Below, one piece after another: positions 10,751 to 28,395 of a stretch of 28,512 nucleotides of DNA. The first letter of the stretch is position 1, and each line of letters begins with the position of its first letter. The DNA comes from a virus (taxonomy: Duplodnaviria; Heunggongvirae; Uroviricota; Caudoviricetes): the IMG/VR virus record IMGVR_UViG_3300043436_002205. The stretch is one strand, 5' to 3'. The position numbers and the translations under genes were made by a program. The notes under the pieces are model-generated. The model was not told where the DNA came from, ran no database searches, and saw only the letters and a program-made list of their open reading frames with translations.

Positions 10751-12178
10751 ATGTCATTCGTTAATGCAGTTCAGAAATCCAAGAACAAAGCAGTCGCTCG
10801 TACCGCGAATGGTATGAAGGCTCGTGCTACTTCACAGTCGCCAGTTCTGGATCTATTCGGTCTTATCGGTTCCGCTCGTGGTACTGATATCACCAAGCAA
10901 TTCACCGCTTCTCTCGTAGAGAATGCCGATCTTACTCTGCGTATGCTGCAGTGGGCTCGTGACATTCGTGAGGGCGCAGGCGAACGTGCTACCTTCCGTA
11001 ATCTACTCTCTGCGCTAGAGGCTACCGACCCAACTCTTGCCGGAAAGCTGATGCACAAAATCCCAGCACTTGGTCGTTGGGATGACCTCTTTGCCTACAA
11101 GAACCCGATCAACCGCAATCAGGCTTTCGCTCTGATTGCAGAGGCTCTTGAAGCAAAGAATGGTCTGGCAGCAAAGTGGATGCCACGTAAAGGTCCGGTC
11201 GCAGTCGAACTGACTCGATACCTCGGTCTGTCTCCTAAGGCATACCGTAAGCTCATTGTCGGTTTGACCAATGTCGTTGAGACTCAGATGTGTGCTAAGG
11301 AATGGGAAGCTATCAACTTCTCGCACGTTCCTTCTGTCGCGTCTGCTCGTTATCAGAAAGCTTTCGGTCGTAATGCAAAAGAGTCCTACTCTGCTTACAT
11401 TGCGGAACTGAAGAAGCCTGTTGCTGAGCGTTCAGATCCTAAAGTCAAGATCAACGCTTCTGCGGTTTATCCGTATGATGTTGTGAAGTCTGTCGTGAAG
11501 GGTAATGCGGCTGTTGCTGATGAACAGTGGAAGGCTATGCCTAACTACATCGGCGATGCAAAGGTTCTGCCTATGGTCGACGTCTCCGGCTCGATGGGTT
11601 CGCTGTGGTACACCTACAGCCAACTGCAGCCAATCGACATTGCTGTTTCTCTTGGCCTTTATTGCGCTAGCAAGAACACCGGAGACTTCAAGGATCTGTT
11701 CCTGACCTTCTCTGGTAAGCCTAAGATGGAACACCTGAAAGGTACTCTGTCTCAGAAGATGACTCAGATGACAAAAGCTCACTGGGAAATGAACACCAAC
11801 CTGCACGCAGCATTCGATGAGATCCTCAAGATCGCTGTTAAGGGCAATGTGTCTCAGGAAGATATGCCTGACATGCTGCTCATCCTTTCGGACATGCAGT
11901 TCGATGCTTGCACTCGCTACGATGACTCTGCAATGCAGATGATCAAGCGTAAGTACAAGGAAGCAGGCTACGATGTTCCAAAGATCGTCTTTTGGAACCT
12001 GTCCATGTACGGTAAGGAAAACGGTAACACTCCAGTTAAGTTCGACAAGAACGGTACTGCGCATGTTTCTGGTTTCTCTCCTTCCATCATGAAGCATGTT
12101 CTCGCAAACGACCTCGAGGAGTTTACTCCATACAATGTTATGTTGAAGACTCTGATGAGCGATCGTTATGCCTACTAA
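10751..12178 (+). CDS. DUF2828-type TROVE/Ro60-like protein with C-terminal vWA domain
   Basis: TANG, RDIREGAGER, GRWDDL, AAKWMPR, SHVPS.A...Y..AF, MIDAS DVSGSM, LSDMQFD, FWNL, SGFS. Confidence 0.85.
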   Translation: MSFVNAVQKSKNKAVARTANGMKARATSQSPVLDLFGLIGSARGTDITKQFTASLVENADLTLRMLQWARDIREGAGERATFRNLLSALEATDPTLAGKLMHKIPALGRWDDLFAYKNPINRNQAFALIAEALEAKNGLAAKWMPRKGPVAVELTRYLGLSPKAYRKLIVGLTNVVETQMCAKEWEAINFSHVPSVASARYQKAFGRNAKESYSAYIAELKKPVAERSDPKVKINASAVYPYDVVKSVVKGNAAVADEQWKAMPNYIGDAKVLPMVDVSGSMGSLWYTYSQLQPIDIAVSLGLYCASKNTGDFKDLFLTFSGKPKMEHLKGTLSQKMTQMTKAHWEMNTNLHAAFDEILKIAVKGNVSQEDMPDMLLILSDMQFDACTRYDDSAMQMIKRKYKEAGYDVPKIVFWNLSMYGKENGNTPVKFDKNGTAHVSGFSPSIMKHVLANDLEEFTPYNVMLKTLMSDRYAY

Positions 12179-12212: not shown

Positions 12213-12313
12213 GGATCGTTGCAGCAAAAAATTAGCTAGTGCAACGGTAGCACACTTTCCTTCTAAGAAAGAGTTCCGGGTTCGATTCCTGGGCAAAATA
12301 AAAAGCGATCCTG
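12213..12313 (+). ncRNA. Y-RNA-like element 3 holding D, UCU anticodon and T arms without acceptor/CCA
   Basis: GGATCG/CGATCC stem, TTGCAGCAA, GTGC-AACGGTA-GCAC, CTTTC-CTTCTAA-GAAAG, CCGGG-TTCGATT-CCTGG. Confidence 0.75.
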
Positions 12314-12344
12314 TAAAATAATTTGAAATAACTCAACTTTTTTG

Positions 12345-12374
12345 TTGACATTCGTAGAATACAATGTATAAATA
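12345..12374 (+). promoter_or_regulatory. Promoter of leader 1: TTGACA plus gp55 late box TATAAATA
   Basis: TTGACA 12345-50, TATAAATA 12367-74. Confidence 0.75.
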
Positions 12375-12405
12375 TATCTAACAGAACTAAAGGAACTCGC
12401 ACTAA

Positions 12406-12492
12406 ATGATTCGCCAACCGCAACCTCAAATGAATAATAAGCGCCAGGTATTTACCTGCGAATATATTCGTATGTGCGAGGGTTCTATATAA
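12406..12492 (+). CDS. Leader peptide 1 of tRNA array 1 (28 aa)
   Basis: MIRQPQPQMNNKRQVFTCEYIRMCEGSI*; AAAGGAA RBS; 3' end overlaps the antiterminator strand. Confidence 0.7.
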   Translation: MIRQPQPQMNNKRQVFTCEYIRMCEGSI

Positions 12493-12553
12493 GGATATTA
12501 AATATCATACCTTATCAAAGAACCCTCCAGATGAAAGTCTAGGAGGGTTTTTT
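12478..12553 (+). terminator. Attenuator 1: mutually exclusive antiterminator and intrinsic terminator
   Basis: GAGGGTTCT (12478-86) pairs AGAACCCTC (12519-27); alternatively AACCCTCC..GGAGGGTT plus T-run (12521-53). Confidence 0.8.
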
Positions 12554-12558
12554 AATAT

Positions 12559-12640
12559 GGTGTGTGGCCCGGATGGTAAGGGGATGGATTGCAAATCCAT
12601 AGCACGAAAGTAGTCAGTTCGATTCTGACACACACCTCCA
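12559..12640 (+). tRNA. tRNA-Cys(GCA), enlarged variable loop
   Basis: Cloverleaf, ATGGA-TTGCAAA-TCCAT, U73, CCA. Confidence 0.9.
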
Positions 12641-12646
12641 GAATAC

Positions 12647-12718
12647 GGTGACACGTTGCGGTAACGACTTGGGTCTCATAAGCCCGAAGAGATGGTTCGA
12701 GTCCATCTGGCACCACCA
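12647..12718 (+). tRNA. tRNA-Met(CAT), atypical D region
   Basis: TGGGT-CTCATAA-GCCCG, canonical T arm, CCA; acceptor mismatch. Confidence 0.7.
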
Positions 12719-12730
12719 AGAAAAAAGTTG

Positions 12731-12759
12731 TTGACATTCATCTAGAATCAGTTTAGATA
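12731..12759 (+). promoter_or_regulatory. sigma70 promoter with spacer GAATCAG
   Basis: TTGACA; GAATC at 12745. Confidence 0.75.
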
Positions 12760-12797
12760 TGAGTTGACGGCGGAAGAAAGACAAAATCAATCTTCCA

Positions 12798-12812
12798 GTT
12801 CTTTGAAAATTT
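12798..12812 (+). promoter_or_regulatory. boxA-like antitermination site
   Basis: GTTCTTTGAAAATTT resembles rrn boxA (TGCTCTTTAACA); downstream of the promoter at 12731. Confidence 0.55.
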
Positions 12813-12856
12813 AAACTTTGTCCTAGCGTAAGCGATGATGGACTGGAAACAGATTT

Positions 12857-12962
12857 ACTCTGTTTTCAACTAGGGTTCGCGGTTCGATTCCGTGCTGGGC
12901 TTCGCGGGCCCGGGTTGCTGCAGCAGATAGTCATGGATGACGACCCTAGTTGAAAACAGAGT
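12857..12962 (+). ncRNA. Long-stem ncRNA A with permuted tRNA-like core
   Basis: Perfect 20-bp terminal stem enclosing T arm CGCGG-TTCGATT-CCGTG, a closed acceptor-like hairpin and a D-like hairpin. Confidence 0.7.
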
Positions 12963-12964
12963 TT

Positions 12965-13039
12965 TGGGAAGTAGTTCAGCGGCAGAATAACTGACTTTGA
13001 ATCAGCAGGCCGGTGGTTCGAATCCACCCTTCCCAACCA
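12965..13039 (+). tRNA. tRNA-Gln(TTG)
   Basis: Cloverleaf, CTTTGAA loop, U1-A72, CCA. Confidence 0.9.
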
Positions 13040-13047
13040 ATAATCAT

Positions 13048-13125
13048 CTGGGTGTAGCTCAGTCTGCGTAGAGTGCTTGCCTTGGAAGCAAGAAGTCGCT
13101 GGTTCGAATCCAGTCATCCAGACCA
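13048..13125 (+). tRNA. tRNA-Pro(TGG)
   Basis: CTTGC-CTTGGAA-GCAAG, C1-G72, CCA. Confidence 0.9.
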
Positions 13126-13135
13126 AAAATACCTG

Positions 13136-13164
13136 TTGACATTCATTTAGAATCAGTATATTCT
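13136..13164 (+). promoter_or_regulatory. sigma70 promoter with spacer GAATCAG
   Basis: TTGACA-N17-TATTCT. Confidence 0.8.
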
Positions 13165-13187
13165 GATAATACGAAAAGGAAAAAGAA

Positions 13188-13337
13188 ATGAAACGAAAAC
13201 ATAAGGACCTACCGAAGGCACGAAACCCATTCGTCCTTCATCTTTCCAAACGTCTTTCGGGCGCACACGGAAAGACTAAAAAAGCGGAACGCCGTAGTGA
13301 TAAGATGGCGTTGAAGCAGGAATGGACGGTTAGCTGA
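13188..13337 (+). CDS. Small basic protein (49 aa) overlapping tRNA-Lys
   Basis: MKRKHKDLPKARNPFVLHLSKRLSGAHGKTKKAERRSDKMALKQEWTVS*; own promoter and AAGGA RBS. Confidence 0.7.
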   Translation: MKRKHKDLPKARNPFVLHLSKRLSGAHGKTKKAERRSDKMALKQEWTVS

Positions 13338-13400
13338 GTTGGTTTAGCGGCGGGCTTTTAATCCGCGTCAACCAGGGTTCGAATCCCTGACCGTTCACCA
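13324..13400 (+). tRNA. tRNA-Lys(TTT)
   Basis: GCGGG-CTTTTAA-TCCGC, CCA. Confidence 0.9.
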
Positions 13401-13512
13401 TTACTTTGATGATGCACCGAGGGCGATTGGTACCAGCCCTTTCCTTGGTGGAAGCCTGCCGTTGAGGTGGGTGGGAGAGTTTCGATACCTCCACGGTGTA
13501 TCTTCTAAGTAA
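13401..13512 (+). ncRNA. Degenerate tRNA-like RNA with long variable arm and no CCA
   Basis: GATGCACCG/CGGTGTATC stem, GGGC..GCCC D-like arm, TTCC-TTGGT-GGAA, TTCGATA T-like loop. Confidence 0.5.
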
Positions 13513-13523
13513 TAGGAGTAAAG

Positions 13524-13916
13524 ATGTTAGAGTGTTTAATCATTGGTGATAGTATTGCAGTAGGAATAGGGCAATATAGACTGGATTGTGTAGTAGAAGC
13601 TAAGGTAGGTATTAACAGTCGTAACTATGTTAAGACTTATGCATTGCCTGAGTCGAAGTTAACAGTGATTAGCCTTGGTAGTAACGATCTAGGTATGAGC
13701 AATCAATATACTGTGTTGTATAACTTACGTAGCGAAATTAAAGGCACTGTGCTTTGGATATTGCCAGCTAACAATGACGAAGCGAGAAGCAATATACTAA
13801 CTATTGCAAGTATTCATAACGATAAAGTTGCTGATATTAGACAACTGCCGTTAAGCAAAGATGGTGTTCACCCTACTACAAAAAGCTATGAAGCACTAGC
13901 AAAGGTATTTAAATGA
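13524..13916 (+). CDS. SGNH/GDSL hydrolase
   Basis: GDSIA, LGSND and DGVHP catalytic blocks. Confidence 0.85.
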   Translation: MLECLIIGDSIAVGIGQYRLDCVVEAKVGINSRNYVKTYALPESKLTVISLGSNDLGMSNQYTVLYNLRSEIKGTVLWILPANNDEARSNILTIASIHNDKVADIRQLPLSKDGVHPTTKSYEALAKVFK

Positions 13917-14065
13917 CTGTAGAAGAAAGATTGGCAAAACTAGAAGCAATTATTGAAATTCTTATGGAAGACCCTGCGTTTCGACATAAAATCGAAGTTG
14001 CTCGTTTGATGTCAGGTAGTAACAAAAATCCAATCCACTTTGAAATCAAAGCCAATTATCAATAA
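13913..14065 (+). CDS. Hypothetical protein, 50 aa
   Basis: MTVEERLAKLEAIIEILMEDPAF...; ATGA overlap with the upstream stop. Confidence 0.55.
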   Translation: MTVEERLAKLEAIIEILMEDPAFRHKIEVARLMSGSNKNPIHFEIKANYQ

Positions 14066-14066
14066 T

Positions 14067-14142
14067 GCACCGGTAGCTGAGAGGCTTAGCGGCGGGCTCT
14101 TAATCCGCGACAACATGGGTTCGATTCCCATCCGGTACACCA
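14067..14142 (+). tRNA. tRNA-Lys(CTT)
   Basis: GCGGG-CTCTTAA-TCCGC, CCA; C2.A71 mismatch. Confidence 0.85.
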
Positions 14143-14269
14143 AAACGTGCCCTTTGACGTTGAAACAAACTAGGGTGATGGCGAATGATTCTTTCCTATC
14201 CTGCAGGATCAATGGGAAACGTCTAAATAACCATCCGCTGCCGAACTGCGATAGTGCTCGGTGCAATTT

Positions 14270-14347
14270 TGTCCTAGAGTCGTCCAGGTGACGGCACCTG
14301 GCTGTTAACCAGGATGGAGAGAGGTTCGAGTCCTCTTAGGACAGCCA
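14270..14347 (+). tRNA. tRNA-Asn(GTT)
   Basis: CCTGG-CTGTTAA-CCAGG, G73, CCA. Confidence 0.85.
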
Positions 14348-14351
14348 ATAT

Positions 14352-14427
<76 letters not shown>

Positions 14428-14477
14428 AGTTTGTGACAGATCCGGCTGCACATTAAAAGAATTTCCGGCTGAAATTT

Positions 14478-14552
14478 TGTGGTGTAGCTCAGTGGTAGAG
14501 CAATCCCCTGATAAGGGATAGGTCGGTGGTTCAATCCCACCCACTACAACCA
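14478..14552 (+). tRNA. tRNA-Ile(GAT)
   Basis: ATCCC-CTGATAA-GGGAT, CCA. Confidence 0.9.
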
Positions 14553-14557
14553 ATATT

Positions 14558-14641
14558 GGGAGTGCCGCCTCAAGGTGAGGCAGCGGACTGTAACTCCGTC
14601 GAGGAAACTCATGTTGGGTTCGATTCCCTTCACTCCCACCA
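14558..14641 (+). tRNA. tRNA-Tyr(GTA)
   Basis: GCGGA-CTGTAAC-TCCGT, long variable arm, CCA. Confidence 0.9.
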
Positions 14642-14648
14642 ATATAAC

Positions 14649-14725
14649 GTCCCTATAGATTACGTTGGCTAGATCATCGCCCTTTCAAGGCGAAGAAGCG
14701 GGATCGACACCCGCTGGGGATACCA
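14649..14725 (+). tRNA. tRNA-Glu(TTC)
   Basis: TCGCC-CTTTCAA-GGCGA, CCA. Confidence 0.9.
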
Positions 14726-14730
14726 ATCAC

Positions 14731-14804
14731 ACTCCTGTAGCATAATGGCAGTGCGCTGTCCTGACTCGACAGATGAGAAGGCTCGATTCCTTCCAGGAGT
14801 ACCA
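14731..14804 (+). tRNA. tRNA-Val(GAC), atypical U37 and C54
   Basis: CTGTC-CTGACTC-GACAG, CCA. Confidence 0.75.
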
Positions 14805-14809
14805 ACAAC

Positions 14810-14883
14810 GCTGCTATAGTATAAAGGTATTATGCATCTTTGGTAAGGATGAGACGGAGGATCGTTACCTCCTAGCAGCACCA
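14810..14883 (+). tRNA. tRNA-Thr(GGT)
   Basis: CATCT-TTGGTAA-GGATG, CCA. Confidence 0.85.
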
Positions 14884-14938
14884 TTTAGAGGTTGACATGT
14901 GGAACAGTTTAGACTATGATGGTGTAAAGGAGACAGCT

Positions 14939-15244
14939 ATGAACATCTCAATCGACTATGATGATACTTACACCAAAGATCCTCTTCTGTGGAATTGGTT
15001 CGCACAAGAAGCGTTGAACCGTGGACATAAGGTCTACTGTGTATCTGCTCGTGGAACCCAACACATGGATGATCCAAAGATGACAATCGGTCGAGTGATC
15101 GGTGCAGAGAATTGCTTTGGTACTGGTCTTCGTCCTAAACGTCACTTTATGCATCATGTTCATAAGATTGACATCGATGTATGGATCGACGATATGCCTG
15201 AGATGATTGTTGATCAGGAAATCGAAGGTTTGTATATGCCTTAA
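14939..15244 (+). CDS. Small HAD-like phosphatase
   Basis: IDYDDTYT (DxD), VSAR, K, WIDD; AAGGAG RBS before ATG 14939. Confidence 0.7.
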   Translation: MNISIDYDDTYTKDPLLWNWFAQEALNRGHKVYCVSARGTQHMDDPKMTIGRVIGAENCFGTGLRPKRHFMHHVHKIDIDVWIDDMPEMIVDQEIEGLYMP

Positions 15245-15245
15245 T

Positions 15246-15318
15246 GCTTCTGCCGGCGGAACCGGTGGCGGGTCTACGAAGCCTGCTTACGAATGTTCAA
15301 CTCATTCCAGGAGCGCCA
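15246..15318 (+). tRNA. tRNA-Arg(ACG), shortened D arm
   Basis: CGGGT-CTACGAA-GCCTG, CCA. Confidence 0.75.
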
Positions 15319-15323
15319 ATAAC

Positions 15324-15398
15324 GCCTCTATAGCTCAGCGGAAGAGTACTGGTCTTCGAAACCAAGGGTCGGGAGTTCGAATCTCTCTAGGGGCACCA
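15324..15398 (+). tRNA. tRNA-Arg(TCG)
   Basis: CTTCGAA loop, canonical arms, CCA. Confidence 0.9.
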
Positions 15399-21057: not shown

Positions 21058-21138
21058 ATGCTTTCTACACATTCGAGCATATCAAGACAGGCGATAAATC
21101 TCCCAGGCGTATGGACTGATGGAGACGGGCTACTTTGA
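21058..21138 (+). CDS. Leader peptide 2 of tRNA array 2 (26 aa)
   Basis: MLSTHSSISRQAINLPGVWTDGDGLL*; last four codons form the antiterminator strand. Confidence 0.7.
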   Translation: MLSTHSSISRQAINLPGVWTDGDGLL

Positions 21139-21202
21139 CATAGATACAAGATCAAATCTATCTCAAAGTAGCCCAGGATGAAAATCCTGGGTTTCTTCAT
21201 TT
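21127..21202 (+). terminator. Attenuator 2: antiterminator and intrinsic terminator
   Basis: GGGCTACTTTGA (21127-38) pairs TCAAAGTAGCCC (21163-74); alternatively GCCCAGGAT-GAAA-ATCCTGGGT plus T-rich tail. Confidence 0.8.
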
Positions 21203-21207
21203 AATGG

Positions 21208-21236
21208 TTGACAAAACGTTAGAATCAGATTATACT
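21208..21236 (+). promoter_or_regulatory. sigma70 promoter with spacer GAATCAG
   Basis: TTGACA-N17-TATACT. Confidence 0.85.
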
Positions 21237-21259: not shown

Positions 21260-21275
21260 AGCTCTTTGACAATTT
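21260..21275 (+). promoter_or_regulatory. boxA-like antitermination site
   Basis: AGCTCTTTGACAATTT downstream of the promoter at 21208. Confidence 0.65.
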
Positions 21276-21295: not shown

Positions 21296-21444
21296 TTCTG
21301 TTTTCACATATGACTGTAAATGGGAGTACTATGGTTCGAATCCATAGGTGGTCTGGCTGACCGTGATTTACAATGCCAAAAGGGCCAGCGTGCCCCTGAG
21401 CGCTCGAAAGTTCGAAGCTTTCACAGTCATAGTTGAAAACAGAA
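21296..21444 (+). ncRNA. Long-stem ncRNA B containing a T arm
   Basis: TTCTGTTTTCA/TGAAAACAGAA plus TATGACTGT/ACAGTCATA stems; CTATGG-TTCGAAT-CCATAG. Confidence 0.65.
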
Positions 21445-21448
21445 GTTT

Positions 21449-21526
21449 TGCGGGGTAGACTGGAGGTGGTTCCAGCACGGTCTCATAAGCCGAAGACGTA
21501 GGTTCGATTCCTACCCACCGCAACCA
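21449..21526 (+). tRNA. tRNA-Met(CAT), initiator-like
   Basis: TGCGGGG 5' end, CTCATAA loop, CCA; irregular acceptor. Confidence 0.75.
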
Positions 21527-25906: not shown

Positions 25907-25984
25907 GGTCCTATAGCTCAGCTTGGTTAGAGCGCGAGTCTCTAAAACTCACGGCCGCGGGTTCAAATCCCGCTTGGACCACCA
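25907..25984 (+). tRNA. Amber suppressor tRNA (CTA)
   Basis: CGAGT-CTCTAAA-ACTCA; canonical D and T arms; A73-CCA. Confidence 0.85.
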
Positions 25985-28322: not shown

Positions 28323-28395
28323 GCGGGTGAGGCTAAGGTAGCCAACTAGCCTTCCAAGCTATAGGAGACCGGTTCGATTCCGGCCACCCGCTCCA
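28323..28395 (+). tRNA. tRNA-Gly(TCC)
   Basis: CTTCCAA loop, GCGGGTG acceptor, U73. Confidence 0.9.

Follow-up and report, generated by a model that had tools for sequence, protein, structure and literature searches.

A likely leader-peptide transcription attenuator ahead of the tRNA genes of an uncultured T4-like lake phage

The stretch of DNA analysed here, referred to as the window, is 28,512 nucleotides long and is part of a 217,966-base IMG/VR virus record (IMGVR_UViG_3300043436_002205). The record is that of an uncultured T4-like lake phage; its gene content is T4-like, with topoisomerase II subunits, an SbcD-like nuclease and a helicase, and DNA of the window was matched in many lake-water metagenomes, among which the sample of origin may be present. 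Its topoisomerase is 49% identical to that of the nearest cultured kin, the Vibrio phage nt-1/KVP40 group. ARAGORN and Rfam together detect at least 31 tRNA genes in the window, lying on the plus strand in two arrays. The first array (12559-15398) covers 13 amino acids, namely C, M, Q, P, K, N, F, I, Y, E, V, T and R, and the second runs on past the end of the window. The tRNA-Tyr (GTA) at 14558-14641 is detected by Rfam and by ARAGORN with relaxed settings and missed by ARAGORN at its default, as are a tRNA-Met (CAT) at 21449-21526 and a tRNA-Gly (TCC) at 28323-28395. The same tRNA-Tyr (GTA) is overlooked by default ARAGORN in three related loci (L005, L091 and L108; other loci are likewise given L numbers below), and a tRNA-Tyr missed in this way was added to an array only if Rfam too called a tRNA. 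The tRNA-Cys that opens the first array is unusual for its kind in having a long variable arm; a tRNA-Cys of this form was seen in 36 IMG/VR stretches (window 12559-12640, loci L134-L167). A tRNA with the anticodon CTA, a reader of the amber stop codon, is present at 25907-25984 (labelled "Pyl" by ARAGORN; 65 bits in Rfam) and is common to L002, L008, L009 and L042.

Immediately ahead of the first array lies a compact cassette (Table 1), here called leader 1. An earlier note on this DNA, made from the letters alone, had placed a short ORF at 12406-12492, and it is indeed found there, with 28 codons and a TAA; the note's counts of two TGC and three ATG codons in this frame are likewise correct, the TGC codons being numbers 18 and 24. 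It had also described a pairing between 12478-86 and 12519-27, extended by ATAAGG/CCTTAT around the stop codon, and a terminator right before tRNA-Cys. Both are borne out: GAGGGTTCT at 12478-86 is the exact reverse complement, over 9 bp, of AGAACCCTC at 12519-27, the ATAAGG and CCTTAT segments form a hairpin that includes the stop codon, and the terminator ends at 12553 with tRNA-Cys starting at 12559. The motif shared by regions 2 and 3 is restricted to these places in the window (3 matches against 0.46 expected). The features of an attenuator are thus present, namely a promoter, a ribosome-binding site, a short ORF and a Rho-independent terminator, followed by tRNA genes.

Table 1. Features of the leader 1 cassette, the tRNA genes that follow it and the second cassette of the window
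Feature	Coordinates	Strand	Details
Promoter, sigma-70-type	12345-12373	+	-35 TTGACA 12345-50; -10 TATAAAT 12367-73; read from the sequence
Shine-Dalgarno region (region 1)	12390-12403	+	AAGGA 12390-94; can pair with 12474-86
Leader ORF	12406-12492	+	ATG 12406; 28 sense codons, MIRQPQPQMNNKRQVFTCEYIRMCEGSI; TAA 12490-92
ORF-internal hairpin	12430-12471	+	codons 9-22; in MFE and centroid folds
Region 2, antiterminator 5' strand	12478-12486	+	GAGGGTTCT; codons E-G-S; ends 3 nt before the stop codon
Hairpin H	12489-12515	+	ATAAGG...CCTTAT plus inner 3 bp; contains the stop codon; stacks under the 2:3 helix
Intrinsic terminator	12517-12553	+	5' arm 12517-32 with region 3 AGAACCCTC; GAAA loop; 3' arm 12537-53; six U
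tRNA-Cys (GCA)	12559-12640	+	82 nt; long variable arm; ARAGORN; Rfam 48.2 bits; first gene after the terminator
tRNA-Met (CAT)	12647-12718	+	ARAGORN; second gene after the terminator
Leader 2 cassette	21058-21202		promoter 21003; 26-codon ORF; GGGCTACTTTGA:TCAAAGTAGCCC pairing; hairpin; terminator

The promoter at 12345 is absent from the list produced by a consensus scan because its -10 hexamer fails the position rules of the tool; the arrangement TTGACA...GTATAAATA is kept before the homologous leaders in L002, L004, L006, L012 and L162. Rfam holds no family for the leader, and only tRNA families reach their gathering score anywhere in the window. A T-box riboswitch was considered and rejected, there being no Rfam T-box match in the whole window. 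Searches by blastn with the leader region and with a family-B leader against 50,697 phage records returned tRNA matches only, or none. Metatranscriptome contigs from four runs carried tRNA parts of related phages with foreign flanks, and none lay on 12323-12527. Just upstream of the leader is a gene (10751-12178) for a 475-amino acid protein with DUF2828 and DUF7788 domains (PHROG "RNA-binding protein"). Small structured RNAs flank this gene, including a tRNA-Arg(TCT)-like element at 12230-12300, and in L002 and L004 it lies in the middle of the tRNA region.

Only 5 nt (AATAT) separate the U-tract of the terminator from tRNA-Cys, a gap too short for a promoter, in agreement with the earlier statement that tRNA-Cys and tRNA-Met have no other visible promoter. 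Any transcript reaching these two genes must therefore cross the terminator, and transcription arriving from the upstream gene would also need to pass it. The next promoter beyond tRNA-Met has its TTGACA at 12733 and a further one lies at 13136, so that tRNA-Cys and tRNA-Met are the only genes to rely on the leader 1 element alone. The view of the earlier note that both are fully attenuation-dependent goes further than the sequence by itself allows.

Both conformers of the leader were folded, a check that the earlier note had proposed. The full leader RNA folds at -52.8 kcal/mol (z -5.4), and none of 200 shuffled sequences was as good. This minimum free energy form is the terminator form; when the 2:3 pairing is forced the energy is -45.7 kcal/mol. 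Since the terminator form is more stable by 7 kcal/mol, the switch must be kinetic. The antiterminator, for its part, is the minimum free energy form of the nascent RNA up to 12527-12540, and the antiterminator piece (region 2, hairpin H and the 5' arm) has an energy of -21.9 kcal/mol compared to -20.2 kcal/mol for the terminator hairpin with its 16-bp stem. The same near-equality in the nascent RNA was seen in all ten elements compared below, with antiterminators of -17 to -27 kcal/mol and terminators of -18 to -22 kcal/mol. Classical attenuators show a like energetic pattern, with a kinetic choice between the forms. The predicted hairpin within the ORF (12430-12471) may serve to pause RNA polymerase.

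Of the sequence upstream, the Shine-Dalgarno region pairs best with region 2, at -15.2 kcal/mol compared to a shuffle mean of -10.3 kcal/mol (P 0.025), and this 1:2 pairing belongs to the minimum free energy fold of the window. In L002 the corresponding pairing has a P of 0.05, and nothing significant was found in the other eight elements. An anti-antiterminator of this kind common to the whole class was accordingly rejected, the pairing being significant in the window and L002 only.

The window contains a second cassette, leader 2, whose peptide (MLSTHSSISRQAINLPGVWTDGDGLL) carries an LP..VWT motif like that of a large family of leaders. Its composition is the complementary amino-acid set, that of the second tRNA array. 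The leader 2 terminator is followed immediately by another promoter at 21208, and in L006 the cassette terminator is likewise followed directly by a new promoter and not by a tRNA.

Relatives of the cassette were gathered independently of the pairing, 13 loci through the neighbouring DUF2828/DUF7788 protein and 36 through the long-armed tRNA-Cys. Homologous or analogous cassettes were obtained in this way from L002, L004, L005, L006, L012, L156, L162 and L163. A strict terminator finder gave 13 matches, and a fold-based finder gave mostly non-leader hairpins, yet it revealed the element of L004. Ten elements were tested: leader 1, leader 2 of the window and the eight relatives, nine of them without selection for pairing. 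About 150 upstream segments of 14 nt per element were compared to the terminator arm, and in each of the ten the segment most complementary to it starts 9-23 nt before the stop codon of a short ORF. The usual energy of this pairing is -12 to -17 kcal/mol compared to -4 to -9 kcal/mol at the next-best place, L005 being weak; in leader 1, region 2 tops 154 upstream segments with -17.0 kcal/mol against -4.0 for the next. The position of hairpin H is filled by a hairpin of unrelated sequence in all ten folded elements, and also in the further family members that were read. The terminator arm begins 24 nt past the stop codon in leader 1 and 22-30 nt past it over the ten elements.

The pairing partners themselves differ between elements. 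The GAGGGTTCT/AGAACCCTC pair of leader 1 is replaced by GGGGGTTCT/AGAGCCCTC in L002, where it is held by wobble pairs, by GAGGGC/GCCCTC in L004, where a T-A pair of leader 1 has become C-G, by GAGGGTTT/AAACCCTC in L006 and by GGGCTACTTTGA/TCAAAGTAGCCC in leader 2. In a formal covariation count, 88% of cells were paired compared to 33-60% with slid partners, with 2 double changes; this count rests on four alignable sequences and so has little power by itself. One double compensatory change was counted in hairpin H. On this comparative sequence evidence the 2:3 complementarity is not a chance match, and the claim of a leader with an antiterminator/terminator switch directly ahead of tRNA-Cys and tRNA-Met is upheld by the conservation of the switch and its compensatory changes.

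It is the frame of the leader ORF, and not its peptide, that is preserved among the close relatives. The ORF has exactly 28 codons in the window, L002 and L156, where 21-38 differences are found in 84 nt (roughly 25-40% nucleotide divergence). These differences are spread evenly over the codon positions in the three comparisons (7/5/9, 12/11/12 and 13/11/14), and the codon changes in the leader 1 clade amount to 11-18 non-synonymous compared to 3-5 synonymous. A frame that is kept while residue identity is not is what would be expected of a leader, and not of a small protein with a function of its own. The large related family has a K-H-L-P-L motif that varies almost only at third codon positions, so the ORFs of that family are read as protein. 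From these sequence patterns the leader 1 ORF may be translated as well.

The composition of the leader was compared to the tRNA array downstream. All 23 of residues 2-24 of leader 1 are among the 13 amino acids of the array, where the expected share is 0.62 (P 1.8e-5), and all 13 of these amino acids occur in the leader; Leu, Ala, Asp, His and Trp do not. Similar results were obtained across families: with 17 family representatives, recall of the array amino acids in the array's own leader is 0.99 compared to 0.83 for permuted arrays and per-residue precision is 0.59 compared to 0.45 (each P ≤ 5e-5), P values that are optimistic since some of the representatives are related. The outcome holds with each of three array definitions and when both leaders of the window are left out. 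An amino acid occurs in the leader in 181 of 189 cases if its tRNA is in the array and in 86 of 151 if it is not (odds ratio 17). Tryptophan is present in the leader in 9/9 cases with tRNA-Trp in the array and in 1/8 without it.

Other families show like behaviour. In L052, two tRNA-Asn are preceded by a leader containing seven Asn (24/28 residues match, P 2.5e-7), and the matches are 22/23 in L061, 10/13 in L012 and 8/16 in L114, the last on a three-tRNA array. In some relatives the precision of the match is poor, as in L002 (10/23). Leaders of 40 codons ahead of arrays for all amino acids contain all 20. At the codon level, 146 of 197 codons belonging to 3-, 4- and 6-fold codon families can be read by the anticodons of the array across leader families, compared to 122.7 expected. 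In leader 1 alone the figure is 4/10 against 5.4 expected, no better than chance; GTA is unreadable by tRNA-Val(GAC), and CGC and CGT are doubtful for tRNA-Arg(TCG).

Taken together, we consider it likely that leader 1 is a ribosome-mediated transcription attenuator of the trp (leader-peptide) type that gates phage tRNA genes, a reading built on sequence and its comparison. Transcription would begin near 12380 and a ribosome would translate the 28-codon leader. With smooth decoding, the ribosome would be at the TAA while the polymerase makes 12517-12553; it would there cover region 2 together with the 5' half of hairpin H, letting the terminator form and the transcript end at about 12553. The masking argument uses the footprint geometry of the ribosome. 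Because only 3 nt lie between region 2 and the stop codon, and 24 nt between the stop codon and the terminator arm, a ribosome at the stop codon masks region 2 and half of hairpin H and cannot reach the terminator, and complete translation should therefore terminate transcription. If the aminoacyl-tRNA for one of the leader codons is scarce, a ribosome held some 5 codons or more ahead of region 2 would leave that strand free to pair with 12519-27 atop hairpin H, sequestering the terminator arm and allowing readthrough into tRNA-Cys, tRNA-Met and possibly further. In the leader 1 clade, an RNA with no ribosome loaded could pair region 2 with 12390-12403, and termination would again be favoured. 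We infer the polarity of the switch and the regulated readthrough from this geometry; the phage probably makes tRNA-Cys and tRNA-Met when ribosomes slow on the leader codons. The best reading is that the attenuator senses the amino acids of the whole array and not just Cys and Met. Since the leader uses the amino acids of the array behind it, this would be a feedback loop in which a shortage of those tRNAs makes the phage produce more of its own.

The cassette could instead be an ordinary small gene or a small RNA of dual function that has a promoter and a terminator of its own and happens to lie ahead of tRNA genes, the tRNAs being served by leaky readthrough or upstream transcription and the 2:3 pairing being no switch. 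In the leader 1 clade this meets the difficulty that amino-acid identity is not conserved, as the excess of non-synonymous changes makes clear; it is the third-position variation of the K-H-L-P-L motif, in the larger related family, that points to a peptide under selection. The new promoter that follows the cassette in L006 and the thermodynamic dominance of the terminator also fit a free-standing unit. Such a unit would, however, have no need of a composition that tracks the downstream tRNA set, nor of a complement placed at the end of the ORF, a hairpin H and compensatory changes, all of which recur in 10/10 elements with unrelated peptides. We regard this explanation as unlikely. Somewhat less probable again is a sensor of transcription-translation coupling in general, one with no amino-acid specificity, in which any slowing of the ribosome opens the gate and composition is secondary. 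The geometry needs only the timely arrival of a ribosome at the stop codon, the codon match of leader 1 is at chance, and the leaders hold amino acids that are absent from the arrays, as the precision of 0.59 reflects. Against this stand the excess recall over permuted arrays, the distribution of Trp and the enrichment of readable codons across families.

The emphasis of the earlier note was on the Cys and Met codons, and the corresponding explanation is an attenuator in which only TGC and ATG are sensed and only tRNA-Cys and tRNA-Met are regulated. The cassette does lie directly before tRNA-Cys in the window, L002, L005, L012, L156, L162 and L163, and in 4/5 relatives a Cys codon, counted by eye, is 21-36 nt 5' of the switch strand. 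Cys is also found in every leader whose array holds tRNA-Cys (14/14), a count that is uninformative (Fisher P 0.18) because nearly all arrays hold tRNA-Cys; non-initiator Met shows no leader-array association (P 0.86). GGC and CGT stand in place of the two TGC codons of leader 1 in L002, the closest homologue, where tRNA-Cys still follows; this speaks against the emphasis. The ATG-TGC reported just before the switch strand is present. Judged by the usual footprint of a ribosome, one that has TGC 12475-77 or ATG 12472-74 in its A site would mask 12478-86, so that these two codons would favour termination rather than readthrough. Sensing of Cys and Met only is also at odds with a leader that represents all 13 amino acids of the array 12559-15398, and of the explanations set out here we hold it to be the least probable, a very unlikely one.

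Attenuation by a leader peptide is well known from textbooks for amino-acid operons and for a small number of synthetase genes, and a literature search found no account of its controlling tRNA genes. The present element differs in its target, phage tRNA genes, and in a leader that is an inventory of many amino acids. The trp-type attenuators of enterobacteria include trpL, hisL, leuL and pheL. The phage element resembles these in its promoter-proximal short ORF, in an intrinsic terminator that overlaps the antiterminator, in a stop codon placed so that the terminating ribosome can mask the antiterminator strand and in the greater stability of the terminator; in the leader 1 clade there may also be a third pairing (1:2), which would favour termination if the RNA is untranslated. 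It differs from them in regulating phage tRNAs where they regulate biosynthetic enzymes, and in its leader, which has no run of a single regulatory codon and in which each of 13 amino acids occurs between one and a few times. Its region 1 is the Shine-Dalgarno sequence, and not the regulatory codons, and is not conserved across the class.

Multivalent attenuators offer a parallel in one respect: the ilvGMEDA leader senses Ile, Leu and Val and the thr leader Thr and Ile, mixed codons allowing one leader to sense several amino acids there as here. Those leaders deal with 2 or 3 amino acids through many codons each, whereas the phage leaders have one or a few codons for each of up to 13, or for all 20 in the 40-codon leaders, and their output is tRNA. 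The pheST leader (pheM) and T-box riboswitches link the decoding or charging state of tRNA to the expression of aminoacyl-tRNA synthetases, and so share with the phage element a feedback of decoding status on the decoding machinery through premature termination. The T-box binds uncharged tRNA directly and does not need translation, and the phage leader has no match to a T-box or other Rfam family; pheM responds to a single amino acid and acts on a synthetase rather than on tRNA genes. Mycobacterial polycysteine leaderless short ORFs are described as Cys-responsive attenuators (bioRxiv 10.1101/834739). The likeness is that Cys codons of an upstream short ORF report the supply of Cys-tRNA to downstream genes; the mycobacterial ORFs are poly-Cys, leaderless and bacterial and precede protein-coding operons, whereas the phage leader has two non-conserved Cys codons and precedes a tRNA array.

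A wider proposal, possible rather than likely in our judgement, is that phage tRNA arrays are under on-demand feedback, each gated by a tiny "test" ORF that lists the amino acids of its tRNAs, so that the phage's own tRNA supply would be switched on exactly when decoding of those codons fails. If this is true, the trigger could be, for example, cleavage of host tRNAs by an anticodon nuclease or the run-down of tRNAs late in infection. The tRNA genes would then be a new class of attenuation target, and the leaders would act as in-built detectors of host defences directed at tRNA. The attenuator itself, if real, would account for the regulation of tRNA arrays in large phages. It would tie phage tRNAs to the sensing of tRNA shortage, which bears on the counter-defence debate over tRNA-cleaving immune systems, and would provide a readable rule, by which the composition of a leader predicts the content of its array.

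A pattern scan on the switch core found at least 119 IMG/VR stretches that match it; because the pattern forces the core pairing, these loci are used as evidence on where the ORF lies, on the tRNA context and on leader composition, and not on the pairing itself. Among the matches listed, a tRNA on the same strand lies within 700 nt downstream in about 85 of 125, the commonest first tRNA being tRNA-Gln (44), and at least 96 carry an ORF of at least 15 codons that ends 0-30 nt past the switch strand. The ORFs of those 96 encode 75 distinct peptides, again among the matches listed, in several families that cannot be aligned with each other. The IMG/VR stretches with this layout, numbering at least about 85, come from lakes and seas, and the cultured Vibrio phage nt-1 possibly has it too. 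In that phage (L169, NC_021529.2 at about 97,680-97,990, minus strand), an unannotated 37-codon ORF with 19 of the 20 amino-acid types, Gly being the one missing, lies in a 315-nt gap ahead of the main tRNA array together with a hairpin and a terminator (GAGGACGC...GCGTCCTTTTT). GTCC just past its stop codon can pair with GGAC in the terminator arm; as this pairing is short (4 bp plus the hairpin) it is treated as a lead.

Several other features of these tRNA regions were seen. In the related contig L005, a permuted tmRNA of alphaproteobacterial type is found at 12515-12886 (95-104 bits in Rfam), which hints at an alphaproteobacterial host for this group of phages. In the window, a basic ORF of 49 codons (13188-13337) follows the promoter at 13136 and overlaps the start of tRNA-Lys (13324) by 14 nt, so that excision of the tRNA would take away the stop codon of the ORF; in a check for ArfA membership, Pfam gave this ORF no match. 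A 20-bp stem (CTCTGTTTTCAACTAGGGT and its complement) encloses a T-arm-like GGTTCGATTCC at 12857-12962, downstream of the promoter at 12733 and ending 2 nt from tRNA-Gln. It occurs again at 21296-21444, and a copy of the stem at 21268 is miscalled tRNA-Glu by ARAGORN. The element at 12857-12962 may be Y-RNA-like or a processing element, and similar stems (GAAAACAGA...) are found ahead of tRNA-Cys in L004, L108 and L140.
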